Positions 1 to 35,185 of a stretch of DNA of 44,285 nucleotides are shown piece by piece. The notes under the pieces were generated by a model. It searched no databases. It had not been told where the DNA came from and saw only the letters and a list, made by a program, of their open reading frames with translations. The stretch lies in the NCBI GenBank assembly GCA_043819075.1, contig JBDRFE010000019.1, positions 1 through 44,285 of the forward strand, read 5' to 3'. Position 1 is the first letter of the stretch. Each line of letters begins with the position of its first letter. The position numbers and the translations under genes were made by a program. This DNA comes from an archaeon. Its GTDB lineage: Archaea > Iainarchaeota > Iainarchaeia > Iainarchaeales > 1-14-0-10-31-34.

Positions 1-993
1 GATGGTTGGTTTAGTAAATACTCCATCCAAGTGGATTTCAGAGTAAGTTGTCCCGCCTGTCATTGAAGTATTGTTTCCTATTGCTAAATGTGCTGTGCCC
101 AAAACTTTTTCGTCTTCTAATACTACGCCGATAATTTTTGCTGTATTGTTTGTTCCTACAGCAAATTCTGCAATATTTTTGGCGTTCTTTCCCAAAGGCT
201 TAATCAGTTTCCGCAATTTTTCTGCTTCTTCGCCTCCGGAAATATTTGTTACAAAGCCTTTCCTTACAGTTATTTCAATTGGAGTTGAAACTTTTCCTAT
301 TGTTCCCATTGAAGCATCAACCACAAATTTTCCCTCTGTTTTTCCTTCTTCCGGCACAATATAAACTTCTCCTTGCGGAATATTCCCCCATTGGCCTGGC
401 TTTAAATAAAAGCCTGCTTTGCTTCCGCCTGCTTTCATTCCATGCAACGGAATCTTAATGTCTGTTCCTAATTCTGTTTTAACTTCAGCCAAATCAGTTT
501 TTGAAAGCAAATTTTTTACTTTTAAGCTTAAAGCTTTTATCTGAAGATAATCTGCTTTTAAGTCTCTTTCAATCATTTCATAATTTAATCTTGGCATTGA
601 AGCAATTCTTGCGTTATTTTTTGATGCCTTCATTCTTGCTTTTGTGTGGCTTAAAGAACTTTTAACCGGCATTAAAATTACATTAAATTCAAGCATTTTT
701 TCTGAGATTTTTTTTTCCGGTTCCATGCCGTTGAACGGCAATGATTTTATTTCAATTAATTTTGTTTTTTTTGAAAGATTTTTTCCTGCTGCAGCAAAAG
801 CTTTTGCAATAAAATAAGTTGTTTCATCGCAGATTACAAGCAGTTTTTCTTTTTTTTTGATTCCAAGGTTTTCAGTTAAAATTTTTTCCCCGTATTTTTT
901 TGTTTTTTCGAAATCAAAGTTTTTGTTGCCGTACGTCTGATAAAAAAGCTCTTTTTTTGAAGGCTTTTTAATTGCTTTTTTTTTTGAATTCAT
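1..993 (-). CDS. M29-family (thermophilic metallo-) aminopeptidase; 3' end runs off the window
   Basis: Not in the ORF track; translated by hand from ATG at 993: MNSKKKAIKK...SLSHTKAR...GNIPQGEVY...NIAEFAVGTN...LEDEKVLGTAHLAIGNN...IHLDGVFTKPTI. These are typical M29 metal-ligand motifs; the frame is open to base 1. Confidence 0.85.
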   Translation of the reverse strand, partial: MNSKKKAIKKPSKKELFYQTYGNKNFDFEKTKKYGEKILTENLGIKKKEKLLVICDETTYFIAKAFAAAGKNLSKKTKLIEIKSLPFNGMEPEKKISEKMLEFNVILMPVKSSLSHTKARMKASKNNARIASMPRLNYEMIERDLKADYLQIKALSLKVKNLLSKTDLAEVKTELGTDIKIPLHGMKAGGSKAGFYLKPGQWGNIPQGEVYIVPEEGKTEGKFVVDASMGTIGKVSTPIEITVRKGFVTNISGGEEAEKLRKLIKPLGKNAKNIAEFAVGTNNTAKIIGVVLEDEKVLGTAHLAIGNNTSMTGGTTYSEIHLDGVFTKPTI

Positions 994-1144
994 TTTTTTT
1001 CCACTTTAAATCCGGCTATTATTTTTTGAAGCCAGAAGAGTAAAAAAAGCTTGCGCTTGTTTTCCTGTTTTTTTGTTCTTGTTCGTGTTTTTGCTTTAAA
1101 AAAACTGTTTTTTTAGGGGAATTTATTTAAACAGTTTAACCTTC

Positions 1145-1176
1145 TTAATATGTTTAAGGTTTAATATGTTTAAGGT
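1145..1176 (+). repeat. Perfect 16-bp tandem direct repeat TTAATATGTTTAAGGT x2, just upstream of the MscS-peptidase gene
   Basis: 1145-1160 and 1161-1176 are identical; the second copy runs into an SD-like AGGTG. Confidence 0.9.
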
Positions 1177-1184
1177 GTTTTTGG

Positions 1185-2732
1185 ATGGCTGAAACAATGG
1201 GAAATTTTTTGCTGAACGAGGTTTTGTTCAGCAATGTAACTCAGGCTGTTGCAGTCATTGTTGCAGGATTAATTATTGCAAAGCTTTTGGGAAAAATCTT
1301 TGGCTTGCTGTTAAAAAAACAGAAAGTAAGCTATTATACTGTTGATTCTGCTGTTAGGTCAGTTGAATTGTTTGTTTTTGTTGTTTCTTTGATTATTGCT
1401 TTAAGCGTGTTAAAGGTTTCTGTTGCAGAAGTCCTTATTTCAAAGGTCATGGCTTTTATTCCTTCTGTGGTGATTTTTTTTCTTGTATTTGTTTTAGGGT
1501 ACATTTTAGTTACGTTAATTGCTGATGCATTAAGTTTTTTGTTCATTAAATTCGGTTCTGATTCTTATTTAGAGGAATTTGGCATTTCAAAACAGGTTAT
1601 TTCTGCTTTTTTCCTTATAGTAAAATTTTTTCTTTTATTGATTGTTTTAATGCTTTCTTTTTCTACTATCGGAATAGACATTGGCTTGTTTCAGGGTTTT
1701 TTTAACACTTTGATTACAGCAATAATTGTTTTAGCGCTTGCTTTATTCTTTTTTGGCTTTAAAGAAATTTTTGAAAACTTTTTTTCAGGGCTTTTTATTC
1801 AAAAAAATTTAATCAAGCCAGGCCAGCAAATCAAAATAGGCAATGAATTAGGGGAAGTAATCGGAGTTGACATTCACGGAGTAATGGTCAGGCTTGCTTC
1901 CGGATACAATCTGGTTGTGCCTAACAAGGAGTTCATTAAAAAGGAGTTTTACTTAAAGAGAGCCAGAAGCGATATTTCAAAACTTGAAAGCATTAGGGCA
2001 AAGTTTGTCCCTCAAATGAATTATTTTTGCGGCCCTGCTTCTGCTTCAATGATGCTGTCTTTTTTTGGCTATAATTTTTCGCAGCAGGAAATAGGAAAGC
2101 TTGCAGGAACAGTTTCTCCTGGCGGGACAAAGCCATTGGATTTAATTAAGGCAGTGGAAAAGCTTTCAAACAATTTAATTAAAGGCCAGTTAATTCGCTA
2201 TAACCAGATTTATAATTTAAGGGATGAAGTTAAAAGCTGGATTTCAGATAGTGCAATGATTTTAATGTGGTATAAAAAGCCTGTGTTGTTTCCTTCAAAG
2301 AAGTCAAGGTCAGGGCATTTTGTTTTGTGTGCTGGAGTTGAAGGAGATGAACTGATTTTAATGGATCCTTCGCCTCAGACTGCAGGGGTTTATTTGGTTG
2401 ATTACAGGTTAATGGATGAAGCAATGAGTGAAACAGACAAGAAAAGAGGTTATCTGGTGTTTGCAAAAAAGGGAACGCCTGCTTTTTGGAGAATAAATGA
2501 AGGGTTAATTTATGCTAATGTTGCTTCTTATAAAAATCTTTCAAAGTCTTTTGAAAGGTATGTGCATAAATTAATCAGGAGAAAATCTGTTGTTAATGAG
2601 CTTTTGTCGGAATTTGTTTTCAATGAAATTTCTTCTGACCCTGAAAAAAAAATAAAGAAAATCTGGATTCCAGAAAAAAGCTTAGATAAAAAGAAAAATG
2701 AATCAGATGGCTCTGATGCAGTGAACGACTAA
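1185..2732 (+). CDS. MscS-family mechanosensitive channel fused to a C-terminal C39-like (papain-fold) cysteine peptidase
   Basis: N-terminal multi-TM region, then MscS beta-domain (FENFFSG...IKPGQQIKIG..GEV...VVPN), then PQMNYFCGPAS (Q277/C282), GHFVL (H378) and LILMDP (D394). Confidence 0.85.
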   Translation: MAETMGNFLLNEVLFSNVTQAVAVIVAGLIIAKLLGKIFGLLLKKQKVSYYTVDSAVRSVELFVFVVSLIIALSVLKVSVAEVLISKVMAFIPSVVIFFLVFVLGYILVTLIADALSFLFIKFGSDSYLEEFGISKQVISAFFLIVKFFLLLIVLMLSFSTIGIDIGLFQGFFNTLITAIIVLALALFFFGFKEIFENFFSGLFIQKNLIKPGQQIKIGNELGEVIGVDIHGVMVRLASGYNLVVPNKEFIKKEFYLKRARSDISKLESIRAKFVPQMNYFCGPASASMMLSFFGYNFSQQEIGKLAGTVSPGGTKPLDLIKAVEKLSNNLIKGQLIRYNQIYNLRDEVKSWISDSAMILMWYKKPVLFPSKKSRSGHFVLCAGVEGDELILMDPSPQTAGVYLVDYRLMDEAMSETDKKRGYLVFAKKGTPAFWRINEGLIYANVASYKNLSKSFERYVHKLIRRKSVVNELLSEFVFNEISSDPEKKIKKIWIPEKSLDKKKNESDGSDAVND

Positions 2733-2744
2733 AAAAAGGTTTTT

Positions 2745-3587
2745 TTGATGAAAGCATTGTTTATTTTTGAAAAAGAAAATGAAGACATTTCAAAGCTAAA
2801 AGAAGCTTTTAACAAAAAAAATATTTCTGTTTCATTGGTTGAAATAGCCAAAATAGGCCTTTTAACTGAAGGCAAAGAAACTACTTTAACAACTAATGGA
2901 TTTAATTTAGAGGATTTTGACTGCTGTTTTATTGAAGCAGGAATCCAGTTCACGCGTTTCATTGAACCATTGATTGACGAGTTTTCCCAGAAAGGAGTTT
3001 ACTGCCAGGTCAAGCCAGATGCTTATTCTATTCTTTCAAACAAGGCTTTTCAGCTGACTACGCTGAACTCTAATGGAATTAAGATTCCTGACACAACTGT
3101 TTTTGGCTCAAGTTTTTTTATTAATTCTTCTTTAAAAGAGTTTTCTTTTCCTTTAGTGCTTCAGGTTTTTGACGGATACAAAAAAATACAGAATGTTTTG
3201 GTTGAATCAGAGAAAGCCCTTTTATCTATTGTGAAAAGCATTAAATCAGATTTTGATGTGTTATTGCTGCAGGAATTTTTTGAAAAAGACTTGAATGAAA
3301 GCGTTGTAATCGGGGACAATGTTTTTACTGTAAGAAGAGCATGGAACAAAGAAAAATTTGAGTACTCTAAAAAAGGCTCAAGCAGGGGCTTAAATGAACA
3401 AGAAAAAGCTAATGTAATTAATGCCTGTAAGGCAATCGGAATTGATATGGCTACAGTGAAATCCATTGAAGGCTGTGTTGTCAGCTTAAAGCCTGTAATT
3501 GATTTCAGTTTTTTTCAGGAAATAATGGGAAAAAACCTTTTTGAGGAAACCGCAGAATTTTATTTTAACAAGCTGAGGAAGGAATAA
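2745..3587 (+). CDS. RimK-like ATP-grasp protein, degenerate (probably catalytically inactive)
   Basis: Retains NK..LNSNGIKIPDT, FPLVL and LLQEF, but lacks the K-x3-G-x-G loop and the E-x-N motif. Confidence 0.75.
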   Translation: MMKALFIFEKENEDISKLKEAFNKKNISVSLVEIAKIGLLTEGKETTLTTNGFNLEDFDCCFIEAGIQFTRFIEPLIDEFSQKGVYCQVKPDAYSILSNKAFQLTTLNSNGIKIPDTTVFGSSFFINSSLKEFSFPLVLQVFDGYKKIQNVLVESEKALLSIVKSIKSDFDVLLLQEFFEKDLNESVVIGDNVFTVRRAWNKEKFEYSKKGSSRGLNEQEKANVINACKAIGIDMATVKSIEGCVVSLKPVIDFSFFQEIMGKNLFEETAEFYFNKLRKE

Positions 3588-3589
3588 AA

Positions 3590-4477
3590 ATGAAGTTTTT
3601 GTATATTGGCGGAAGCAATGAAAGGCAGGAAGTAAAGCAGTTGATTTTAGAGGAAGCGCATAAATTATTTGACACTGTATTGTATGCTCCGCTGAAAAAA
3701 ATAAAGATTGAATGCAGGAACGGAAAAACAAAACTGGTTTTCAAGGGAACTGACTTAACTTCTTTTGATGCCTGTTATGCAAGGCTTTTCTCCAAAGACT
3801 TAATGTTTGGCGAAATTGTTTTAGACATATTAAATCATTCAGATGTTTTTATTCCTTTGACTCCAGAGGCATTTCAGGCAACCAACCACAAATATTTTAC
3901 TGTTAAAGTTCTTTCAAGGGAAGGAATTCCTGTTCCTGTTTCTTCTTTGGCTGTTGCCCCTCAGACTGCAATTGACATGAGCCATAAAATGGGTTATCCG
4001 ATAATAATTAAGCTGCTGTCTGGTTTTGGAGGCAGAGGTGTAATGCGCGCTAACTCTGAAGAAGAATTCAGGCCTGTTTTGGACACTTTAAAGCTTTTCA
4101 GGGAATTCATTTCAACACAAGAATTTGTTAAGTCAGAAAATTATGATATACGGTGCCTTGTTTTTGGCGAAGAAGTTTACGGCATTAAAAGAACCTGCAG
4201 GGAAGGTGAATGGCGGACAAATGTTTCTGCCGGAGGAAAAGCAGAGTTAATTGAATTAAGTTCTGCAATGAAAGAAGATGCATTAAAGGTTTCAGCGATT
4301 TTAGGCTTGGGAGTCTGTGCTGTGGATTTCATGGAAGAACAGGGAAAATACAAGTTAATTGAAGTGAATTTTGCCCCTGGATTAATGATCGATTTTTTTG
4401 GCCCAAAGTTTCCGAATATTCTTGTCAAATACTTGTATAAAAAAACAAGGGAATTAAAGACAAGAAACAGGTTTTAA
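3590..4477 (+). CDS. RimK/LysX-family ATP-grasp amino-acid (alpha-L-glutamate) ligase
   Basis: YPIIIKLLSGFGGRGV, QEFV, DIRCLV, WRTNVSAGG, AVDF, IEVNFAPG. Confidence 0.9.
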   Translation: MKFLYIGGSNERQEVKQLILEEAHKLFDTVLYAPLKKIKIECRNGKTKLVFKGTDLTSFDACYARLFSKDLMFGEIVLDILNHSDVFIPLTPEAFQATNHKYFTVKVLSREGIPVPVSSLAVAPQTAIDMSHKMGYPIIIKLLSGFGGRGVMRANSEEEFRPVLDTLKLFREFISTQEFVKSENYDIRCLVFGEEVYGIKRTCREGEWRTNVSAGGKAELIELSSAMKEDALKVSAILGLGVCAVDFMEEQGKYKLIEVNFAPGLMIDFFGPKFPNILVKYLYKKTRELKTRNRF

Positions 4478-4482
4478 TACAT

Positions 4483-5307
4483 ATGAAGCTTGCAATAATT
4501 TCTTCTGAAAAACAGTTTGAAACTGAAAGAATAAAAGAAGAAGCAGTTAAAAGAAAGCATGTTGTTTCTGTTTTTCATCCAGAGGCATTACAGGCAGGCA
4601 TTGGCTTAGTGAAAAAAAAATTTGATTTGGTTTTATTCCGTACATTACAGGATTTTTCTTTGCAGGGAAGAGCACTTGCATTAAGCTTTTTTTCTTCTGG
4701 CACAAAAATTGTTGACGAAAAGCTTGCTTCAATGAATGGAAGAAATAAGTTCACAAACTATTATTGTTTTTTTAAAGCAGGCTTAAATATTCCAAAGACT
4801 TTTTTTTTGAATAGGAAAACTTTTTTTTCCCTTCCTTTTTCTGATTCTGATTGGATTGTATTAAAAGAGCTTGAAGGAAAAAGAGGAAAAGGAATTTACA
4901 GAATAAAGTTTTCTGAGATTCATTCTTTTCTGCCTTCAGTGAAAGAAAACTTTTTTTTGGTTCAGGAATTCATTCCATTTGAAAAAGAGTTAAGAGTTCT
5001 TGTAATAGGCGGAAAAGCAGTTGGCGCATTTGAAAAGCAGTCAAGTCATTGGCTGAAAAACATTGCACAAGATTCTGTTGCAGTTGAATTCAAATTAAAT
5101 AAAATGATTTCTGATATTGCCGTTAAAGCGGCTGAAAGCGCGCAGTTAGAGATTTCTGGCGTTGACCTTGCCTTGCATGAAAAAAAATGGTTTGTTTTAG
5201 AAACAAACCGTTCCCCGCAGTTCAAGGCTTTTGAGGAATGCACTGGAATAAATGCTGCCCAAAAAATAGTTGAATTCCTTGAAGAAAAAGCTAAAACAAG
5301 AAAGTGA
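4483..5307 (+). CDS. RimK-family ATP-grasp ligase
   Basis: GLNIPKT, VLKELEGKRGKGI, VQEFI, ELRVLVIGG, WLKNIAQ, GVDL, LETNRSPQF. Confidence 0.85.
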   Translation: MKLAIISSEKQFETERIKEEAVKRKHVVSVFHPEALQAGIGLVKKKFDLVLFRTLQDFSLQGRALALSFFSSGTKIVDEKLASMNGRNKFTNYYCFFKAGLNIPKTFFLNRKTFFSLPFSDSDWIVLKELEGKRGKGIYRIKFSEIHSFLPSVKENFFLVQEFIPFEKELRVLVIGGKAVGAFEKQSSHWLKNIAQDSVAVEFKLNKMISDIAVKAAESAQLEISGVDLALHEKKWFVLETNRSPQFKAFEECTGINAAQKIVEFLEEKAKTRK

Positions 5308-5316
5308 TTTTTTTTT

Positions 5317-5571
5317 ATGGAAAAAAAACTTGAGTTATTTGACAAAAAAGTAAAAAAAGAATCAAATAAAAAACAGGTTTCTTTCAGGTTCTGTCCTGCT
5401 TGCGGTTCAGTTAACTTAAAACCCCAGATTTATGGAATGGGAAAAGATGCTGTTGCATTGTCTCCTATGATGCGCTGCACTGACTGCGGGTTTTATGGAT
5501 TTGTTTTTGATGGAACGCCTGAATTCCTGAAAGAATTCAGGGAAAAACTTAAGAAAAATTCATCTGCCTGA
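5317..5571 (+). CDS. Small zinc-ribbon protein
   Basis: CPACGS...CTDCG; starts 9 bp after the third ligase. Confidence 0.7.
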   Translation: MEKKLELFDKKVKKESNKKQVSFRFCPACGSVNLKPQIYGMGKDAVALSPMMRCTDCGFYGFVFDGTPEFLKEFREKLKKNSSA

Positions 5572-5989
5572 TTATCTTGTTTTTCAGTTTGGATGACTTG
5601 AATTTTCCTGCATTTAACGCTTTAACTCTTTTTATTTCAGCTTTAATGCCTCTTTTTTTCAGTTCTTCTCTGAGTTTTTCTGTTGAAGGCTGTTGGTCGT
5701 ATCCTAAAACAATTACTTCCGGCTTTAATTTTTTGAGTACTTCAAATATTGCTCCATTCTTGTTTCCTAAAACTGTTTTGTCAACTGGCTTTAATGCCTG
5801 AATAAGTTTTTTTCTTTCGTTTTCCTTTAAAATCGGTTCCCTTAACTTGATTTTTTTTACTCTTGTGTCTCTTGCAATAACTACAGTTAGCTCTTCACCA
5901 AATTTTTTTGCCTGCTCTAAGTAATGCAAGTGCCCTGGATGCAGGCCGTCAAATGTGCCGAATGCAAGAACTCTGTGTTTTTTTGCCAT
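5549..5989 (-). CDS. ribL: Archaeal FAD synthetase (cytidylyltransferase family)
   Basis: FGTFDGLHPGH, VVIARD, IVLGYDQ, SSK. Confidence 0.8.
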   Translation of the reverse strand: MAKKHRVLAFGTFDGLHPGHLHYLEQAKKFGEELTVVIARDTRVKKIKLREPILKENERKKLIQALKPVDKTVLGNKNGAIFEVLKKLKPEVIVLGYDQQPSTEKLREELKKRGIKAEIKRVKALNAGKFKSSKLKNKIIRQMNFS

Positions 5990-6037
5990 ACAAATAAATA
6001 GTATTTCATTAAACTATTAAATAAAACAGGTTTTTTT

Positions 6038-7000
6038 ATGGGCTTAAAGGAAAAAATGCAGTTGATTGAAGAAAATTCAGTTGAACTGGTTACAAAAGAA
6101 GAAATTGAAAAAATTCTTTCAGAAAAAAAGTCTCCGATAACTTACTGCGGTTACGAGCCATCAGGAGAAGTTCATTTAGGCCATTTTGTTACTGCAATAA
6201 AATTATCGCAGTTAGAGAAAGCAGGCTTTAAAGTTAAAATTCTTTTAGCTGACTGGCATGCGTTTCTGAACAAGAAAGGAACTGAAGAACAGATAAAAGA
6301 AAACATTAAGTTTTGGAAGAAAGCTTTTTCTTTTATCGGATTAAAAGAACCAGAGTTTGTTTTGGGTTCTTCTTTTCAGAAAAAACAGGATTACATTGAA
6401 GATTTATTGAAGCTTTCACTGCACACTACAATTAACAGGGGTTTGCGTTCAATGCAGGAAGTTGCAAGAGACATTGAGAACGCAACAGTTTCTCAGGCAA
6501 TTTATCCTTTAATGCAGATTAATGATTTAAAGCACTTGAAAATTGATGTCGCGCAGTCAGGCATTGAACAAAGAAAAATCCATATGCTTGCCCGAGAGCT
6601 TATTGAAAAAATTAGTTACAAAAAGCCTTCTTTTGTGCATACTCCGTTAATTGATTCAATGTTAAAACCCGGAACAAAAATGAGTTCAAGTGATGCTTCT
6701 ACTTTAATTTCTGTAAGGGATTCAGAAGAAGAAATTAAAAAGAAAATAAATAAAGCGTATTGCGTTGAAGGCGATGCAAATAATGCTTTGCTGCAGATAA
6801 TGAAGTTAATTGTTTTTCCTAAAAAAAATTCAGTTGAAATTTCCCGTCCAGAAAAATTTGGAGGAAGCATTAAGTTTAATTCTTTTTTTGAGCTGGAAAA
6901 AGCTTTTTCTGAGAAAAAGCTTCATCCAATGGATTTAAAGAATTCGTTGTCAGCTGAATTAAATGATGTTTTAGAGCCTGTTAGAAAGGCTTTCAAATAA
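6038..7000 (+). CDS. tyrS: Tyrosine--tRNA ligase (archaeal type)
   Basis: YCGYEPSGEVHLGH, ADWHAFLN, IYPLMQ, EQRKIHMLARE, KMSSS, LHPMDLK. Confidence 0.95.
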   Translation: MGLKEKMQLIEENSVELVTKEEIEKILSEKKSPITYCGYEPSGEVHLGHFVTAIKLSQLEKAGFKVKILLADWHAFLNKKGTEEQIKENIKFWKKAFSFIGLKEPEFVLGSSFQKKQDYIEDLLKLSLHTTINRGLRSMQEVARDIENATVSQAIYPLMQINDLKHLKIDVAQSGIEQRKIHMLARELIEKISYKKPSFVHTPLIDSMLKPGTKMSSSDASTLISVRDSEEEIKKKINKAYCVEGDANNALLQIMKLIVFPKKNSVEISRPEKFGGSIKFNSFFELEKAFSEKKLHPMDLKNSLSAELNDVLEPVRKAFK

Positions 7001-21825: not shown

Positions 21826-22938
21826 GTGAAGTGGAGAAAGAAACTAAAAAAAGAGAATATTGTTACAATAGATGAATTAAAAAAATATGTTTCTCTTTCA
21901 AAAAAACAGGAAAAACTCCTAAAAAAGGCTGCTGACATTCATCCAATGAGCATAACAAAATATTATTTTTCTTTGATTGACTGGAAAGACAAAAACGATC
22001 CAATAAAAAATTTAGTTGTTCCGTCTGAAGATGAACTTGATTTGCATGGAATATATGATACAAGCGGAGAACACGATAACACTAAATCAGTCGGATTACA
22101 GCACAAGTATGCTGAAACTGCACTGCTTTTGTCAACTAACAGGTGTGCGGCTTACTGCAGATTCTGTTTCAGGAAAAGATTAGTTGGATTATCAAACGAG
22201 GAAATCCTCAAAAGATTTGATGAAGCCGTAAAATACATTAAAGAGCACACTGAAATCAATAATGTTTTAATCAGCGGCGGCGACCCGTTAACTTTGCCGA
22301 CTGAAGTAATTGAAAAACTCTTAAAAATGCTTTCAAGAATAGACCATCTTGATTTCATCAGATTTGGCTCCAGGGTTCCGGTTGTTTTTCCTGAAAGGAT
22401 TTCAAAAGACAGGGAACTGCTTGCTTTATTCAAAAAATATTCAACAAAAAAAAGAAGGATTTACATTGTAACTCATTTTAATCATCCAAGAGAAATAACT
22501 TTTCAGTCAATTAATGGAATAGACTCTCTAATTAAATCAAATGTTATTGTAAACAACCAGACTGTATTGCTTAAAGGCGTTAACGATGATTCTGAAGTGT
22601 TAGCTGAATTAATGAATAAGCTGGTTTCCATTGGCGTTAATCCTTATTATGTTTTTCAGTGCCGTCCTGTGAAAAGAGTCGTGCATCATTTTCAGGTGCC
22701 ATTTTATTATAGCTGCAGGCTTGTTGATAACGCAAGAAAAAAGCTTAACGGCCATGCAAAAAGATTCAAGTTTGTAATGTCTCATAAAAGAGGCAAAATA
22801 GAGATTTTAGGAATTAAAGGCAAATACATTTTATTCAAACAACATCAGGCAAAAGACCCTGAATTAATCGGGCAAATCTTCAAAAGAAAACTGGACAGAA
22901 CTTCTGGCTGGCTTAATGACTCGCTTAAAATGTATTGA
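21826..22938 (+). CDS. KamA-family radical SAM/PLP 2,3-aminomutase
   Basis: GLQHKY, CAAYCRFCFRKR, VLISGGDPL, THFNHPRE, NQTVLLKGVND, PYYVFQ; GTG start. Confidence 0.9.
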   Translation: MKWRKKLKKENIVTIDELKKYVSLSKKQEKLLKKAADIHPMSITKYYFSLIDWKDKNDPIKNLVVPSEDELDLHGIYDTSGEHDNTKSVGLQHKYAETALLLSTNRCAAYCRFCFRKRLVGLSNEEILKRFDEAVKYIKEHTEINNVLISGGDPLTLPTEVIEKLLKMLSRIDHLDFIRFGSRVPVVFPERISKDRELLALFKKYSTKKRRIYIVTHFNHPREITFQSINGIDSLIKSNVIVNNQTVLLKGVNDDSEVLAELMNKLVSIGVNPYYVFQCRPVKRVVHHFQVPFYYSCRLVDNARKKLNGHAKRFKFVMSHKRGKIEILGIKGKYILFKQHQAKDPELIGQIFKRKLDRTSGWLNDSLKMY

Positions 22939-22956
22939 CTTGTTTGCTTAAAAAAT

Positions 22957-24201
22957 TCAGATAACTTTTTCCATGAATTTTGGCAGAACAAAAGCCGCTT
23001 TATGGATTTCTTTTGAGTAATACTTTAGGTTTCCTTTAAGTTTTTTTGTTTTTGCATCCAATGGATTGAATTTTTTGCTTGCAAACCCGAATCCAATTGA
23101 ACCAGAAGGATAACTTGGGGTTAAAACATAATAGTAGCCGAATTTTGGGAACACTTCTTTTATTCTTTTTGACACCATGCTGACTATTTTTGGGTCATAA
23201 AAAAAGCTCTGCAATTGGTTAACCATTATCCCGTCTTTTTTCAGTGAATTAAACACTAGTTTATAGAATTTTGTGCTGAACAATATTTTTCCTGGCCCTA
23301 CTGGGTCGGTTGAATCAACTATTATTACATCATAATAGTTTTTTCTTCCCTGCAAGAACTTGAATCCGTCTTCGTGGAACACACTTAATCTTTTGTCTTT
23401 TAATCCTTTGGCTGTGAATGGCAGGAATTTTTTTGATGCAATTAAAACTTCTTCATCTAAATCGCATAAATGAACTTCTTTTACATCAGAGTGTTTTTCT
23501 ATTTCTCTTGCAACTCCGCCGTCTGCTCCGCCGATAACCAAGACATTTTCTGGTTTTGGGTGTACATGAAGGGCGGGATGTGAAATCATTTCTTGATAGG
23601 TGAATTCGTCTGCTTCAGTTAATTGTATTGCCCCGTCTAATACAAGCATTTTGCCGAAGGCTTTTGTTTTGTATACTTCTATTTGCTGGTAAGGGCTTTT
23701 TTTTGAGTAAAGCGGTTTTGCTTTTAATGCAAGCGATATTCCTTTATTGAATTCAAGTGTTTCAAAAAACCAGTCCCTGAGGTTTGGGATTTCCAAATTT
23801 TTTTGTTCTTTTGCCCAGGGCATTCTTCTTACAGTATAGTATGCTTCAGTTCTGTCTGCTTCAAAAAACTTTTTTGTGAATTCTTCTACTTCTTTTGGGT
23901 CATAGTATTTGCAGCTGAATATATCGATGTAAGCTGAATTCGTTTGTTCTGCGAAATGCCCGCTAATCATTGAGGTTTCAATTAACTGTGACATTGAATA
24001 GCCTTTGACTCTTTCTTCGTCGCCGAACCTTACTGTAACTGTTTCGCCGAATCTTTTCATGTCAATTCTTTTGCATAATTTTTTTACGTATTCTTTGATG
24101 TCTTCTTCTGAGCGGATTTTTTTTGGATTGCAGCCAAACAAGTCCACGCTTGTAAGCATTCCCCAAGCTCTTCCTGCTTTGAATTCATCTACGAACTGCA
24201 T
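22957..24201 (-). CDS. speE: Fused S-adenosylmethionine decarboxylase (SpeD) and spermidine synthase (SpeE)
   Basis: N-part IETSMISGHF (pyruvoyl cleavage site) and YIDIFSCK; C-part SPYQQI, LDGAIQLTE.DEF.YQEMISH, VLVIGGADGG, DVIIVDSTDP. Confidence 0.9.
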   Translation of the reverse strand: MQFVDEFKAGRAWGMLTSVDLFGCNPKKIRSEEDIKEYVKKLCKRIDMKRFGETVTVRFGDEERVKGYSMSQLIETSMISGHFAEQTNSAYIDIFSCKYYDPKEVEEFTKKFFEADRTEAYYTVRRMPWAKEQKNLEIPNLRDWFFETLEFNKGISLALKAKPLYSKKSPYQQIEVYKTKAFGKMLVLDGAIQLTEADEFTYQEMISHPALHVHPKPENVLVIGGADGGVAREIEKHSDVKEVHLCDLDEEVLIASKKFLPFTAKGLKDKRLSVFHEDGFKFLQGRKNYYDVIIVDSTDPVGPGKILFSTKFYKLVFNSLKKDGIMVNQLQSFFYDPKIVSMVSKRIKEVFPKFGYYYVLTPSYPSGSIGFGFASKKFNPLDAKTKKLKGNLKYYSKEIHKAAFVLPKFMEKVI

Positions 24202-29078: not shown

Positions 29079-30287
29079 TCATTGTTTCAGTTTTTTTAAT
29101 TCCAGTTCCTTGAACAGTTTAATGTAGTCCATTAAATGCCTTGTAATCAGGAAATTTTTTCTTACATGCTCTTTTCCTTGTTTGCCTAATTGTTTTCTCA
29201 GCTTTTCGTTTTTCAGCAATTTAACAGCCCTTTTTGCTGTGTCATCGGAATTATTGGTTAAGTAACCTGTTTTTCCGTCTAATACCTGCAGGGGAATTCC
29301 GCCTACTTTGCTTGCAATTACTGGCGTTTCTTTCCATAATGCTTCGCTTACAGTTAATGCAAATCCTTCTTTTATTGACCTCTGGAAAACTATTTCAGAG
29401 CTTCTCTGTAATGCGTTAACCAGAAAAGAATTGTTTTCTGTCAGCAATAAAACTGAGTCGTTTCCGTTGGCAAGTTTTTTTATTTTGTCGTAAATTTCTT
29501 TTCCTTCAGGGTCGTCGTCTGCAGTGTTTCCCAGCAATACAAGCCTGCAGTCAACTTCTTTTTTTATTTTTTCAAATGACTTTATCATTTCAGGAAAATC
29601 CTTCCATTTGTCAAACCTTGAAATCATTGAAATAATTGGCTTATCAAAGTCAACGCCTCTTTTTGAAAGAAATTTCCTGCATTTGCTTTCTTTTACTTCC
29701 TTGTTTTTTTCGTTTAATGGGTCAATTGAAGGATAAATTATGTAATGCGGTATTTTCAGTTTCTGCGCAAATTTTTCGTGTGAAAAAATTGCAGCGTCAT
29801 ATTTTTCTATGAACTGTTTTAGGTAATTCCATACTTCCCTGTTTGGATGCGATGAATCAAGATGAAATCTCCAAATCCAAGTGTGTTTTTTGTCGTAATA
29901 GTTTATTAACGGAACTGGCTGCGGGTCATGCACTATAACATAATCGTGGTCTTCTATGTGTTGGATGAATGCATTCCTTTCATTGTATTTTAAGTGAATT
30001 CTTTTTTTCATCGGGCTTAAATTAATTTTTTCCCCGTGCATTGCGTTATGGAATTTTTTTGTTATTTCAAAGAAATCCCAGGGGCCTGCAATAACCCTCC
30101 AGCCTGTTTTCAATCCAACGTCATTCATTAAGTAAACTAAGCTGTTAAGTATTTCTGCTACCCCCCCGCCATAATGAGTTGAATTAATGTGAACAAAATG
30201 CCTTGAACACAACGGAGTTGCTTCTTCAAAAATCCTGTTAACTTCTTTTTCGCCGATTATTTCAGAATATTTTTTTAAAAATTTCAT
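29079..30287 (-). CDS. treT: TreT-like trehalose synthase (GT4 glycosyltransferase)
   Basis: HINSTHYGGGVAEIL, TKKFHNA, HDPQP, WIWRFH, PSIDPL, SRFDKWKD, DDPEG, EGFALTVSEALWK. Confidence 0.88.
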   Translation of the reverse strand: MKFLKKYSEIIGEKEVNRIFEEATPLCSRHFVHINSTHYGGGVAEILNSLVYLMNDVGLKTGWRVIAGPWDFFEITKKFHNAMHGEKINLSPMKKRIHLKYNERNAFIQHIEDHDYVIVHDPQPVPLINYYDKKHTWIWRFHLDSSHPNREVWNYLKQFIEKYDAAIFSHEKFAQKLKIPHYIIYPSIDPLNEKNKEVKESKCRKFLSKRGVDFDKPIISMISRFDKWKDFPEMIKSFEKIKKEVDCRLVLLGNTADDDPEGKEIYDKIKKLANGNDSVLLLTENNSFLVNALQRSSEIVFQRSIKEGFALTVSEALWKETPVIASKVGGIPLQVLDGKTGYLTNNSDDTAKRAVKLLKNEKLRKQLGKQGKEHVRKNFLITRHLMDYIKLFKELELKKLKQ

Positions 30288-30373
30288 TTCATTTTTTTTA
30301 AGGATGGATATGTTTAAATTAATTGTCTATTTCAATTAACGAATGAAGCTTTTGATGAGGACGGCAAAATTAA

Positions 30374-31795
30374 ATGTTTTTTCCAGATAAAGGCAGGTTA
30401 ATTCTTGTTTCAAACAGAGAACCTTATTCTAATTACTTTCATAAAGAAAAAATTGTTTTGCAGTCAACCGGCGGAAGCCTTGTATCTGTTTTAGACCCTT
30501 TAATGCGTGAGGCAGGCAATACCTGGGTTGCATGGGGAAGCGGCAAAGCAGATTTTGAGGCAACTGATTCAAGCCAGAGAATAATGATTGGAAGCAAAAA
30601 AAATTCTTACTGGCTGAGAAGAATAAAGCTTTCAAAAAAAGAAGTAAACGAGTATTATATTGGTTTTTCTAACAGGACTTTATGGCCTTTAGTTCATTTA
30701 ATGACTGAAAAAGTGCAGTTCAATGAAAATTACTGGAAAACCTACAAAGAAGTAAATGAAAGGTTTGCAAACATTTCAGTTGAACAGTTCAGGAAAAACG
30801 ATTTTGTCTGGGTTCAGGACTATCAATTGTGTTTAGTTCCAAATTTAATCAGGAAAAAAAGAAAGAATGCAAGAATTGCATTTTTTTTCCATCTGCCCTG
30901 GCCTCCTTGGGATGTTTTCAGGATTCTTCCCCAGAAAAGGGAACTGCTGAAAGGAATCCTTGGAGCTGACTTAATTGGCTTTCATACAAAAAAGTATGCA
31001 AAAAATTTTTTGGATTGTGTGGCAACAGAGTTTAAGCTTAAGCCAAAAAAAGGTTCAGTTAAGTTTGAAGGCAGAAAAATTTCTGTTAAAGCTTTTCCTC
31101 TGGGAGTTGATTTTCAGGCATTGCAGAAAGCATCTGAATTAAAGAAATCAGTTGAAGTCCAGAAAGATATCAGGAAAAGCGTTAACTCTGAGTTCATGCT
31201 GTTAGGGGTTGACAGGCTTGATTATTCAAAAGGCATTCCAAACAAGTTAAGGGCTTTCAGATTGTTCCTTGAAAAATACCCGTCTTTCAGGAAAAAAGTT
31301 GTTTTAGTTCAGCTGATTACTCCTTCAAGGTCAAAGGCAAAAGAATACAAGGCATTAGAAGAAGAAATTGATTTCCTTGCAGGAGAAATAAACGGTGAAT
31401 ACCAGAAACTTTCTTGGATTCCAATCAGAAGCCTTGACAGGTTTGTTTCAAAAGAAAGATTAATTGGTTATTACCGTGCTGCAGACATTGCATTGGTTAC
31501 TCCTTTGATTGACGGAATGAACCTGGTTGCAAAAGAATTTATTGCAGCAAAAAAAGACAACAATGCTTCGCTTATTTTAAGTTCTTTTGCCGGGGCAGCA
31601 GAAGAATTAAAGAAAGCAATTTTAGTGAATCCATTCAATGAAAGTGAAGTGGCTGAAGCAATCCATAAAGCCATTGCAATGAAACCAGAACAAAAAAGAA
31701 AGAATTTTATGGCATTAAAAAAGTCAGTTGAAAAAAATAATATTTTTGTCTGGTTAAATGATTTTATTTCAGAGTGGAAGGAAATTTATTCTTAG
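30374..31795 (+). CDS. otsA: Trehalose-6-phosphate synthase (GT20)
   Basis: VSNREP, FSNRTLWP, VWVQDYQL, ADLIGFH, GVDRLDYSKGI, DGMNLVAKEF, VNPF. Confidence 0.95.
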   Translation: MFFPDKGRLILVSNREPYSNYFHKEKIVLQSTGGSLVSVLDPLMREAGNTWVAWGSGKADFEATDSSQRIMIGSKKNSYWLRRIKLSKKEVNEYYIGFSNRTLWPLVHLMTEKVQFNENYWKTYKEVNERFANISVEQFRKNDFVWVQDYQLCLVPNLIRKKRKNARIAFFFHLPWPPWDVFRILPQKRELLKGILGADLIGFHTKKYAKNFLDCVATEFKLKPKKGSVKFEGRKISVKAFPLGVDFQALQKASELKKSVEVQKDIRKSVNSEFMLLGVDRLDYSKGIPNKLRAFRLFLEKYPSFRKKVVLVQLITPSRSKAKEYKALEEEIDFLAGEINGEYQKLSWIPIRSLDRFVSKERLIGYYRAADIALVTPLIDGMNLVAKEFIAAKKDNNASLILSSFAGAAEELKKAILVNPFNESEVAEAIHKAIAMKPEQKRKNFMALKKSVEKNNIFVWLNDFISEWKEIYS

Positions 31796-31806
31796 AAGCT
31801 GATTAA

Positions 31807-32541
31807 ATGAAAGTATTCCTTTTCCTTGATTATGATGGTACGTTAGTTTCTTTTAAGCCAAGGCCAGAGCAGGCAAAGCCTGGAAAAAAACTTTTAAGGC
31901 TAATCAGAAAACTCTGCGTGAAAAAAAATTTTGTTGTTTCAGTTGTAAGCGGAAGGACAATGAAAGAACTTAAAGGCTTTCTTCCAATAAAAAATCTTGT
32001 TTTTGCTTCAAGCCACGGCACACAAATAAGTTTTCATTCAAAAAAAGAATTTGTTTTTTCAGGTGCACTAAAAGCTGTTCCTGTAATAAAAAAAATTGCT
32101 TTTCTTTCAGAAAAAAAGTTTTCTTCAGTTAAAGGGCTTTTATTGCAGGACAAGAAAACTGCTTTTGTACTGCATTACAGGAACGTTGAAAAAAAACTGC
32201 ATGTAAAACTAAAAACTGCTTTCAGGAAAATAGTTAAAGAAACTGACACAAAAAAACAGCTTGAATTAATTTCAGGCGCAATGGTTTTAGAGGCAAGGCC
32301 AAAGCACTGGAACAAGGGAAGCGCAGTAAAGTTAATTCTGAAAGAATTCAAGAGAAAGAAAAATGATTCAGTGTTTTATTTCGGAGACGATTTAACTGAC
32401 GAAGACGCTTTTAAGGCATTAAAAAAAGATTTTACTTTCCTTGTTTCACAGGAAAAAAAGAAATCAAATGCAGTCTTCAGGATAAAGCAGGATAAAGTAA
32501 TTCCTTTGCTCAGGCTTTTCTTAGGTTTTCCTAACCTTTAA
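31807..32541 (+). CDS. otsB: Trehalose-6-phosphate phosphatase (HAD)
   Basis: FLDYDGTL, VSGR, HYRN, EARP..WNKG, GDDLTDEDAF. Confidence 0.93.
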   Translation: MKVFLFLDYDGTLVSFKPRPEQAKPGKKLLRLIRKLCVKKNFVVSVVSGRTMKELKGFLPIKNLVFASSHGTQISFHSKKEFVFSGALKAVPVIKKIAFLSEKKFSSVKGLLLQDKKTAFVLHYRNVEKKLHVKLKTAFRKIVKETDTKKQLELISGAMVLEARPKHWNKGSAVKLILKEFKRKKNDSVFYFGDDLTDEDAFKALKKDFTFLVSQEKKKSNAVFRIKQDKVIPLLRLFLGFPNL

Positions 32542-32602: not shown

Positions 32603-33820
32603 ATGCAGAGAAGGAAAAGCATTGCAGTTAAAGTAGGAAACATTGTTATTGGCGGCAACAATCCTGTTGTAATCCAGTCAATGACTAATACGCCTACAGA
32701 AGACGTTCAGGCAAGTGTTAAACAAGTCAAGGAATTAGCTGAAGCTGGAAGTGAATTAGTCAGGCTTACAGTCAAAGATGATGCTGGTGCAAAAGCAATT
32801 CCTTTAATCAAAAAACAGTTGCTTGATGAAGGATTTGAAGTTCCTTTAATCGGTGACTTTCATTACAACGGCCACATTCTTTTAACAAAATTTCCTGCGT
32901 GTGCGCAGGCATTAGACAAGTATAGAATTAATCCAGGTAACGTGGGTTTTGGCTCAAATCATGACGCTAATTTTGAGGCAATGGTTAAGGTTGCAATAGA
33001 CAACAACAAGCCTGTCAGAATAGGAGTCAACTGGGGTTCTTTAGACCAGCAGGTTTTATCAAAATTAATGGATGATAATTCAAGAAAAGGAAACATTAAA
33101 TCAAATGAAGAAATAGTGATTGATGCATTGGTTTCAAGTGCAATTGAAAGCGTTAAAAAAGCAAATGAACTTGGTTTATCAAACAAAAAAATTGTTGTTT
33201 CAACAAAGTCTTCCAGAGTGCCTGACATGGTTAAAACTTATTCAATGCTTGCAGAACAATGCGAGAATGCACTGCATTTAGGTGTCACTGAAGCAGGGCA
33301 GGGTTTGAAAGGAGCTGTTCATACTTCTGCTGGCTTAAGCATTTTATTGAATAAAGGGATTGGTGATACTATTCGAACTTCTTTGACTCCTGTTCCAGGC
33401 GTTAGCAGGACAGAAGAAGTAAAAATTTCCAGGCTGGTTTTGCAGAGCTTAAAGTTAAGGCATTTTGTTCCAGAAATTACTTCTTGCCCTGGTTGTGGAA
33501 GAACTACTAGTACGGTTTTTCAGGAAATTTCAATGGATGTTGAAAAGTTTTTGCAGAAAAAAACCCCTGAATGGAAGAAAAAAGGTTTCAAGGGCTTTGA
33601 AGAAATGGAGGTTGCTGTAATGGGCTGCATTGTTAACGGTCCAGGGGAAAGCAAGGCAGCAAACATTGGCTTAAGCCTGCCCGGAGCAGGAGAACAGCCT
33701 ACTGCACCGGTTTTTATTGACGGAAAACAGGTTAAAGTTTTGAAAGGAAACGCAAAACAGTTAACCTCTGATTTCATTAAATTAATTGAAGAATACGTTG
33801 AAAGCCATTACTCTAAATAA
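32603..33820 (+). CDS. ispG: (E)-4-hydroxy-3-methylbut-2-enyl-diphosphate synthase (MEP pathway)
   Basis: QSMTNT, GDFHYNG, RINPGN, RIGVNWGSL, HLGVTEAG, GIGDTIR, SCPGCGRT, AVMGCIVNGPGE. Confidence 0.96.
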   Translation: MQRRKSIAVKVGNIVIGGNNPVVIQSMTNTPTEDVQASVKQVKELAEAGSELVRLTVKDDAGAKAIPLIKKQLLDEGFEVPLIGDFHYNGHILLTKFPACAQALDKYRINPGNVGFGSNHDANFEAMVKVAIDNNKPVRIGVNWGSLDQQVLSKLMDDNSRKGNIKSNEEIVIDALVSSAIESVKKANELGLSNKKIVVSTKSSRVPDMVKTYSMLAEQCENALHLGVTEAGQGLKGAVHTSAGLSILLNKGIGDTIRTSLTPVPGVSRTEEVKISRLVLQSLKLRHFVPEITSCPGCGRTTSTVFQEISMDVEKFLQKKTPEWKKKGFKGFEEMEVAVMGCIVNGPGESKAANIGLSLPGAGEQPTAPVFIDGKQVKVLKGNAKQLTSDFIKLIEEYVESHYSK

Positions 33821-33886
33821 TTCGGCTATTGACGTAAAAATAGTTTTTTATACTTGTTCTACTACTTTTGTTTTAAGGTGGATTTA

Positions 33887-34105
33887 ATGGAGTACAAGGT
33901 TGTTTTGGCGCAGGATGCAGAAACCAAATGGTTTGTTGCAGAGGTTCCAGGTTTGCCTGGCTGTGTTTCCCAAGGAAAAACCAAAGCACAGGCATTAAAG
34001 AATGTCAAGGATGCAATTAAAGGTTATCTTGAAAGCCTGAAAAAGCATCCAGAAGAACTAATTTTTGAAAAAACAGTTGAAATTGCAGATGTTTCAGTGG
34101 CTTAA
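33887..34105 (+). CDS. hicB: HicB-family antitoxin
   Basis: FVAEVPGLPGCVSQGKTKAQALKNVKDAI; SD AGGTGG before ATG 33887. Confidence 0.9.
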   Translation: MEYKVVLAQDAETKWFVAEVPGLPGCVSQGKTKAQALKNVKDAIKGYLESLKKHPEELIFEKTVEIADVSVA

Positions 34106-34327
34106 ATGAAGCTTCCGGTTCTGTCAGGAATTAAAGTAATCAAGGCATTAAGGAAAGCTGGTTTTGAAGTTGACCATCAGACAGGAAGCCATTTTATTTT
34201 AAGGGAAAACAAAGTGCCTTTCAGAAGAGTGACTGTTCCAAACCACAAAGTTATTGTGCCCGGAACTATTGTTTCTATTTTAAGGCAGGCAGGCATTTCA
34301 AGAGAAGAATTTGCTGAATTGCTTTGA
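34106..34327 (+). CDS. hicA: HicA-family toxin (mRNA interferase)
   Basis: LRKAGF...QTGSH, VTVPNH, GT..SILRQAG. Confidence 0.9.
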   Translation: MKLPVLSGIKVIKALRKAGFEVDHQTGSHFILRENKVPFRRVTVPNHKVIVPGTIVSILRQAGISREEFAELL

Positions 34328-34330
34328 CTT

Positions 34331-35185
34331 TTATGCAGTGAATGCCTGTATTACTGTCTTGAATTCTTTTTTCAGCTTTAATGCAAGTTCTTCTGATTGT
34401 TTTTCTGTTTTTGGGAAACAGAATACAGTGCTTCCTGAGCCAGACATTAAAGCGTTAAAAGAATCTGGTTTCATTTTTTCTTTTAATTCCTTTATTTTTG
34501 GAAAAGCATTGAATACAGAGAACTCAAAATCATTGTGGATTAATTCAGCAAGTTCTTCAGTTATTTTTTTTTCTTCTATTGCTTTCTTCATTTTTCTTGA
34601 AGCCAAAACTTTTCCTGTTTTTTCATAGTTTATTTCAGAGTAAGCTTTTTTTGTTGAAACATGTATTCCGGGATTACAGATTAAAATTCTTGTTTTTGGA
34701 AAAGATTTTATTCCTTCAATTTTTTCTCCTCTTCCAGAAGCAAAACAAGTTCCTCCGTGCAAAAAGAATGCTACATCCATTCCAAGGCTTTCTGCAATTA
34801 ACTGCATTTCTTTTTCTTTCATTTCAAGTTCCCATAATTTGTTTAATCCTTTTATTGTTGCTGCTGCATTAGAACTTCCTCCGCCCATTCCGCCTGCAAC
34901 AGGAATTTTTTTTTCAATAAACGCTTCAATTCCTTTTTTTATCATTTTTTTTTCTTTTACAAGCTGAATGGCTTTCCATACAAGGTTTTTTTCATCCAAG
35001 GGGATTTCTTTTGAGTTTGAAGTGATTTTAATTAAATCTTTTTCTGTTTCTTTTAAAACAATTTTGTCTTTCAGGCTTATTTCCTGCATTACCATTTCTA
35101 ATTCATGATAGCCGTCGTCTCTTTTGCTGATAATGTCTAAAGTTAAATTAATTTTTGCAGGTGATGTAACTGAAATTTGTTTCAT
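34331..35185 (-). CDS. ispE: 4-diphosphocytidyl-2-C-methyl-D-erythritol kinase (MEP pathway, GHMP)
   Basis: PAKINLTL, DGYHEL, KKIPVAGGMGGGSSNAA, LGMDVAFF, GRGE, VST, NDFE, MSGSGS. Confidence 0.93.
   Translation of the reverse strand: MKQISVTSPAKINLTLDIISKRDDGYHELEMVMQEISLKDKIVLKETEKDLIKITSNSKEIPLDEKNLVWKAIQLVKEKKMIKKGIEAFIEKKIPVAGGMGGGSSNAAATIKGLNKLWELEMKEKEMQLIAESLGMDVAFFLHGGTCFASGRGEKIEGIKSFPKTRILICNPGIHVSTKKAYSEINYEKTGKVLASRKMKKAIEEKKITEELAELIHNDFEFSVFNAFPKIKELKEKMKPDSFNALMSGSGSTVFCFPKTEKQSEELALKLKKEFKTVIQAFTA

Follow-up and report, generated by a model that had tools for sequence, protein, structure and literature searches.

A membrane-anchored cysteine peptidase beside paired RimK-type ligases in Iainarchaeota: a candidate glutamate add-and-trim module

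The locus and its three-gene core

The window analysed here is a stretch of 44,285 nucleotides from an archaeal genome of the Iainarchaeota (assembly GCA_043819075.1, contig JBDRFE010000019.1). Near its start lie three genes on the forward strand: the fusion (1185-2732; 515 residues), which joins an MscS-like membrane part to a cysteine peptidase; ligase 1 (2745-3587; 280 residues from a TTG start, with an ATG at 2748), a degenerate RimK-type ATP-grasp protein; and ligase 2 (3590-4477; 295 residues), an apparently intact one. Ligases 1 and 2 are called the pair below. The original prediction described five co-oriented genes separated by gaps of 12, 2, 5, and 9 base pairs (bp), with a divergent M29 aminopeptidase gene. 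This layout is confirmed, the M29 gene lying 191 bp away, and the domain calls behind it (MscS-C39 fusion, degenerate RimK, two further RimK proteins, and M29) agree with Pfam and NCBIfam matches and with comparison of catalytic residues.

The membrane part of the fusion comprises about five predicted helices and an MscS β-domain (residues 195-255). It scores above the cut-offs of two MscS models (PF00924, 29 against 20.2; PF05552, 23.1 against 22) and matches Escherichia coli MscS with an E value of 2e-11. The carboxyl-terminal α/β domain of MscS (PF21082) is absent, and the peptidase occupies its place; unfused MscS relatives, of 265-293 residues, stop about 60 residues past the conserved Asn. 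In the 16 residues before this invariant Asn, 34 fusions average 3.9 Gly, Ala, or Ser and 4.3 aromatic residues, compared with 8 and 1 in the separate, complete canonical MscS encoded by the source genome (G000, 90.6% complete). By this count, the small-residue pattern of the MscS pore helix is missing from the corresponding predicted segment. The predicted structure of the full fusion is a monomer model. The family forms several dozen clusters at 50% identity; marine gammaproteobacterial matches to it (L005-L023) were set aside, as they cover the MscS β-domain only and have no ligases in the six loci read.

The papain-fold cysteine peptidase (matching PF13529 and PF03412) spans residues 262-430 approximately, is followed by a conserved carboxyl-terminal tail, and likely lies on the cytoplasmic side of the membrane part, as predicted from sequence. 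Its catalytic set is Q277, C282 (nucleotides 2028-2030), H378 (2316-2318), and D394 (2364-2366), and all four residues are intact in each of the 102 fusions with a whole domain in the fetched loci. In profile comparison, the closest solved structures are the phytochelatin-synthase-like Alr0975 and PeiR, both closer than ComA; a search of the ESM Atlas returned generic C39-like clusters only. Set against the phytochelatin synthase family C83 (NsPCS numbering), the peptidase has the equivalents of Q64, C70, H183, and D201, a Lys at the position of R173, and no aligned equivalent of K206. The Pfam model PF05023 matches 17 of 28 fusion-family members at E≤0.01, the window fusion not among them. 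The Cys-His-Asp C39-like domain of peptidase-containing ATP-binding cassette (ABC) transporters (PCATs) is also present. Elsewhere in the family, full-length copies that have lost the catalytic Cys or His (P0085, P0090, P0091, P0096, P0098, P0102, P0105-P0109, and P0111-P0113) arose at several places in the fusion tree.

Ligase 2 matches PF08443 and exceeds the cut-off of TIGR00768 (147.4 against 143.4), and its best match in the PDB is Pseudomonas aeruginosa RimK (E 1e-30). Nine residues (K101, K141, R188, R201, R209, N211, D246, E258, and N260) are the same in all 59 orthologues. R65, R188, and N260, likewise present in all 59, correspond to R64, R189, and N262 of P. aeruginosa RimK, which PMC10092738 describes as contacting poly-α-glutamate in the structure; S68 is variable. 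Ligase 2 is thus likely an intact enzyme of the RimK-family α-L-glutamate-ligase type, its activity being a prediction. Ligase 1 (PF08443; TIGR00768 score 51.4) has lost the equivalents of R188, D246, E258, and N260. Its predicted model (mean predicted local distance difference test score 91.6) superposes on RimK with template-modelling scores of 0.85-0.88, so the fold is retained, and its copies form a clade of their own in the ligase comparison. From the fixed adjacency of the two genes we infer that ligase 1 probably acts as a partner subunit of ligase 2.

In a survey of 201 Iainarchaeota genomes (drafts, 67-99% complete), 25 carry the fusion, 24 of them near full length and one as a fragment at a contig end. 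Fusion, ligase 1, and ligase 2 are contiguous in this order in 23; in the other two (G050 and G200), ligase 1 is cut short by the contig end. One locus has a run of N within ligase 1 (G180) and one an in-frame stop in ligase 2 (G072). The conserved unit is therefore three genes, not six: the co-location in relatives expected by the original prediction holds for this core, but ligase 3, the M29 peptidase, and the Zn-ribbon protein are variable. Among the 25 loci, ligase 3 is found in 15; M29, M20, and N-formylglutamate-amidohydrolase-like genes in seven each; GCS2 in six of the fetched stretches; and the Zn-ribbon open reading frame (ORF) in five, figures that are lower bounds given the many truncated loci.

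Metagenomic assemblies extend the picture. From 93 loci with the fusion, 80 were kept, and a ligase is present in 43; another 23 lack one although their downstream DNA exceeds 1 kb, and the remaining 14 are too short to judge. Sixteen of the ligase-linked loci resemble named Nanohaloarchaeota and keep the core trio; one of their ligases shares 88% identity with the ligase of Ca. Nanosalina sp. VS9-1. The trio is also kept in a sister group of four loci. A conserved P-loop protein of about 345 residues is encoded convergently on the pair in 15 Nanohaloarchaeota-like and sister-group loci (for example, L106:10238-11278 and L114:11049-12116). Most of the ligase-less fusions share 57-67% identity with a protein recorded under Woesearchaeota, a taxonomy by similarity only. 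Closer to the window, named Diapherotrites/Iainarchaeum records carry the fusion at 78-80% identity, and the sequencing runs that best match the locus are groundwater metagenomes.

Alternation with a RimB-like retropepsin

Searches with profiles of ligases 1 and 2 found the pair in 78 of the 201 genomes, threefold more than the fusion. What accompanies it is one of two proteases: 25 of the pair genomes have the fusion, 51 have a RimB-like retropepsin, none has both, and two have neither. The remaining 122 genomes, which lack the pair (one genome, G003, being counted apart), yielded neither the fusion nor a RimB-like gene. The RimB-like gene is thus present in 52 genomes, the 51 with the pair and G003, a count on which a protein search and a PF05618 family search agree; it was not found in G000 or in the other 24 fusion genomes at their draft completeness.

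The RimB-like protein is a retropepsin of 126-185 residues with the D-T/S-G motif, belongs to PF05618 (the RimB/RloA family), and falls under the NCBIfam RimB cut-off wherever tested. In the loci that were read, its gene lies directly upstream of ligase 1 and is divergently transcribed. The two proteases share a position: each gene is directly 5' of ligase 1, between FAD-synthetase/tyrosyl-tRNA synthetase (TyrRS) genes and IMPDH where the flanks are seen, though in opposite orientations. In the fusion-less loci that were read (20 of 54, G003 included, plus one more), the neighbours include a GNAT protein (13 loci), a MATCAP peptidase (eight), and an M29 peptidase (five). The neighbours that interchange around the core act in acyl-amino-acid chemistry, as hydrolases or ligases. 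By comparison, five bacterial rimB loci with about 1.5 kb of flanking DNA have RimK and desuccinylase-like neighbours and no MscS.

Ligase 1 is degenerate across these forms. The metal ligands and the substrate Arg are lost in the type-I, Nanohaloarchaeota-like, and sister-group copies, and one Asp is kept in a third of the RimB-type copies.

In a FastTree phylogeny of ligase 2, the RimB-type copies group in one clade (support 100) that excludes the fusion-linked Nanohaloarchaeota-like group. This suggests, as the simplest reading of the ligase tree, a single replacement of the fusion by RimB. A single replacement makes the alternation one strong coincidence rather than 76 independent ones, and, the genomes being related, no weight is placed on the naive 2e-18 probability of finding no overlap. 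The TyrRS genes next to the locus are mostly of two sequence types that track the fusion form (L054-L077, about 320-330 residues) and the RimB form (L166-L184, about 356 residues), a pattern that either a deep split between lineages or a block transfer could explain.

Three genomes depart from the pattern. G003 has a separate operon in the order RimB, active RimK, dead RimK (L185:7637-9740; L187), its ligase lies outside the main clade, and further RimK-type genes are on another contig. In G007, the pair is followed by an asparagine-synthetase-like amidotransferase (L180:5806-7635), possibly a third variant of the locus. In G121, the other pair genome with neither peptidase, the contig ends 52 bp upstream.

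A proposed add-and-trim module and its rivals

Pseudomonas RimB is described as a poly-glutamate endopeptidase that removes glutamate tails and stimulates poly-α-glutamate synthesis by RimK (PMC11957791). Since the fusion alternates with RimB beside RimK, it most likely does RimB's job. We infer, with confidence slightly better than even, that the locus specifies a module for adding and trimming glutamate, akin to RimK/RimB, in which a membrane-anchored cysteine peptidase does the trimming. Ligase 2, probably with ligase 1 as partner, would use ATP to join glutamates into α-linked chains; the fusion peptidase, on the cytoplasmic side, would cut these chains, as RimB does in Pseudomonas; accessory exopeptidases and amidohydrolases (M29 here; M20, N-formylglutamate-amidohydrolase-like, and MATCAP enzymes elsewhere) would finish them to free amino acid; and ligase 3 and GCS2 would supply primers or form linkages of other kinds. 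The product may be either a free polymer or a protein tail, and the membrane part may either conduct or only anchor. Of the peptide synthesis, processing, and export system originally proposed, the make-and-cleave part is supported by co-location, but bacteriocin-type export lacks support.

Several observations weigh against the add-and-trim module. The solved structures most similar to the peptidase belong to enzymes that work on glutathione or isopeptides rather than on poly-α-glutamate. The catalytic triad is lost in 14 of 48 representatives of the fusion family (at 50% identity), so cleavage is not its sole conserved role. In 23 of the 80 metagenomic loci (20 distinct at 95%), an intact fusion occurs with no ligase adjacent within the locus stretch. 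In G007, a 97% complete genome, the pair adjoins the asparagine-synthetase-like gene, and neither peptidase was found. Since the ligase tree groups the RimB-type genomes in a single clade, exclusivity may reflect one event, in which two different functions were possibly lost and gained together. A protein target was not found either: the bS6 model (PF01250) has no match in G000, although it matched in 10 bacterial controls, and a candidate LysW-like target does not track the pair, occurring in 54 of 78 pair genomes and 41 of 123 others.

The main rival, rather improbable, holds that the fusion is a membrane-bound γ-glutamyl or isopeptide amidase or transpeptidase of phytochelatin-synthase type, which handles glutathione or host-derived peptides and is co-regulated with ligases whose product it leaves untouched. 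The ligase-less fusion loci and the triad-dead copies favour it. However, the fusion in Iainarchaeota is always found with the pair (25/25) and never with RimB (0/52), and beyond the lack of an aligned K206 equivalent, an R-to-K change at R152 abolishes activity of AtPCS1. Another rival builds on the osmotic buffer of the original prediction: the ligases would store glutamate as polymer, the peptidase would free it at the channel mouth, and an MscS-like pore would vent it on downshock. The fusion does have the MscS β-domain and membrane helices, miniature MscS proteins of 171-174 residues are deposited with seven chains per entry, and the P. aeruginosa rlo operon is reported to be required for hypo-osmotic tolerance (PMC11957051). 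Against this stand the absence of the fusion from 53 of 78 pair genomes, the separate complete MscS and trehalose genes of G000, and the bulky residues in place of the small ones of the pore helix; this model is weakened and now appears doubtful. A related and equally doubtful version combines trimming with a channel: the fusion would be an oligomeric MscS-type pore with a ring of cysteine peptidases as its cytoplasmic cage, the ring would cut glutamate chains made by ligase and pseudo-ligase at the pore mouth, tension would control cleavage or passage, and the triad-dead copies would be binding or regulatory versions. If true, it would represent a mechanically coupled protease-channel common to several DPANN lineages.

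Two further explanations fare worse. Housekeeping ligases (for cofactor glutamylation like that of MptN, CofF, or MyfB, or for carrier chemistry of the LysX/ArgX type) might stand beside the peptidase by chance. The ligases do give matches to the MptN, CofF, and LysX models, all sub-threshold and far under the equivalog cut-offs; a LysW-like Zn-ribbon with an acidic tail is encoded a few genes away in many loci; and 7 of 25 loci have an M20 enzyme as neighbour. But CofE, MCH, and semialdehyde dehydrogenase have no match in the 90.6% of G000 at hand, although controls matched, so that the housekeeping role the original prediction had itself raised as a danger draws no support from this genome, and the LysW-like gene is absent from all 13 genomes of family f6, every one of which carries the pair. 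Chance adjacency of this kind seems very unlikely, and the same co-occurrence rules out the LysW-like protein as a dedicated substrate or carrier. That protein (59-102 residues with a very acidic carboxyl-terminal tail; G000:C34:844-1023, L063, L073, L167, L174, and others) is encoded in 95 of 201 Iainarchaeota genomes, and G000 carries its gene without a semialdehyde dehydrogenase (LysY/ArgC) match. Least probable of all, with hardly any weight left to it, is the earlier proposal of a ribosomally synthesised and post-translationally modified peptide or graspetide pathway with the MscS-C39 fusion in place of a peptidase-containing ABC exporter. The ligases are nearest to RimK by sequence and fold and score 26.8 and 31.6 against the graspetide model TIGR04187, whose cut-off is 350; besides the Zn-ribbon, no small precursor ORF occurs in window positions 1-6100, and none is conserved in the cluster lists; the fusion has no ATPase domain. 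Its peptidase, as noted, is nearer by profile to Alr0975 and PeiR than to ComA, and export of a modified peptide is unsupported.

If the add-and-trim module is correct, gene displacement supplies a specific substrate hypothesis for an unstudied family of DPANN membrane proteins, in which a papain-fold enzyme replaces the aspartic protease RimB. Moreover, genome-reduced archaea would have kept a system that spends ATP on glutamate chains, with a conserved pseudo-ligase but no bacterial ribosomal target. A membrane part that proved to conduct or sense tension would make the fusion a channel in which an enzyme takes the place of the cage; no published description of such an arrangement was found in a search of mostly open-access literature, supplements lying outside it. 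Among the papers listed from the same literature, none joins a DPANN name with RimK or ATP-grasp, though supplements to DPANN annotations could list the genes. The named Nanohaloarchaeota with the pair may give access to co-cultures.

The core is flanked by accessory genes. Downstream lies ligase 3 (4483-5307, forward strand; 274 residues; PF08443), a RimK-family ligase of a separate clade that in other loci is found either downstream of the core or divergently upstream. It keeps the metal ligands, but the equivalents of R201 and R209 are altered, so its specificity may differ. The 84-residue Zn-ribbon ORF that follows (5317-5571, forward) has sub-threshold Zn-ribbon matches only, is restricted in all five of its loci to the window's genus, and is probably a passenger; a similar ORF sits on contig C2. 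Upstream and divergent is the M29-family aminopeptidase gene (1-993, reverse strand; PF02073, E 4e-17), which extends beyond the window start. Contig C71 of G000 overlaps the window by 141 identical bases and continues with the end of the M29 gene, a GCS2-family carboxylate-amine ligase (PF04107; a copy additional to the six counted above), and IMPDH, the same order as in genus relatives. The 191-bp AT-rich region between the M29 and fusion genes (994-1184) has a predicted promoter role; the only signals seen there are AT-rich TATA-like words, one of them at 1122-1131. A perfect 16-bp tandem duplication (about 1145-1176) lies just upstream of the fusion start codon. A scan of the locus for σ70 promoters and terminators gave hits at chance level, σ70 being the wrong promoter type for an archaeon.

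Elsewhere in the window, a TreT-type synthase, a trehalose-6-phosphate synthase, and a phosphatase are encoded together (29079-32541). A radical SAM gene is convergent on a fusion of S-adenosylmethionine decarboxylase and spermidine synthase (21826-24201). Genes of the bacterial methylerythritol phosphate pathway type, here in an archaeon, encode GcpE (IspG) and a GHMP kinase that we take to be IspE-like (32603-35185). A PurD-like ATP-grasp gene of 788 residues (41139-43505, reverse strand) has an internal LAGLIDADG-like match, likely an intein.

Comparison with known systems

The locus is not a PCAT, a graspetide cluster, or a phytochelatin synthase. Unlike a PCAT, the fusion has no ABC ATPase or permease domain, and no ORF for a double-glycine precursor is seen in window positions 1-6100. 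With Alr0975 and the pseudomurein endoisopeptidase PeiR, the peptidase shares the papain fold, the Gln/Cys/His/Asp set, a basic residue at the R173 position, and an RG motif; it differs in that this basic residue is Lys rather than Arg, in the K206 position, and in being fused to a membrane part. Members of the MscS family (CmpX-like and miniature forms) have the same membrane helices and β-domain with its conserved Asn, whereas in the fusion a peptidase replaces the α/β cage domain and the pore-helix residues are bulky.

Bacterial loci offer further parallels. RLAN-RimK adjoins a GNAT-DUF3335 protein, with a C39-like papain-fold domain, in four of five gammaproteobacterial genomes, the Pfam scan covering one protein pair. 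PMC10318531 describes DUF3335-GNAT fusions, and according to PMC4431377 and PMC10318531 the linked ligases were discussed by Iyer et al. 2009. There, however, the C39-like domain is fused to GNAT, channel and dead ligase are lacking, and profile similarity to the fusion domain is weak (probability 22%). The P. aeruginosa rlo operon encodes the retropepsin RloA, which cleaves runs of 8-10 glutamates; RloB, with seven transmembrane helices and an inactive transglutaminase; and the ATP-grasp protein RloC; and it controls hypo-osmotic tolerance (PMC11957051). It resembles the archaeal locus in combining an ATP-grasp protein, a membrane protein with a cysteine-protease-like domain, and a link to poly-glutamate cleavage and osmotic stress. 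The archaeal locus, by contrast, has an MscS-like membrane part, an intact protease domain with a predicted cytoplasmic location, and a RimK-type ligase with a pseudo-partner.

Also close is the Pseudomonas RimK/RimB (RimABK) system, in which a RimK-family ligase with poly-glutamate-binding residues is paired with a protease (PMC11957791, PMC10092738); the sister form of the archaeal locus even has a RimB-like gene. The differences are a conserved dead paralogue, the lack of a bS6 target, no RimA seen, and the replacement of RimB by a membrane-anchored papain-fold peptidase. By analogy, then, the locus would work like RimK/RimB, yet with neither bS6 nor RimB found in G000 it does not belong to that ribosome-modification system.

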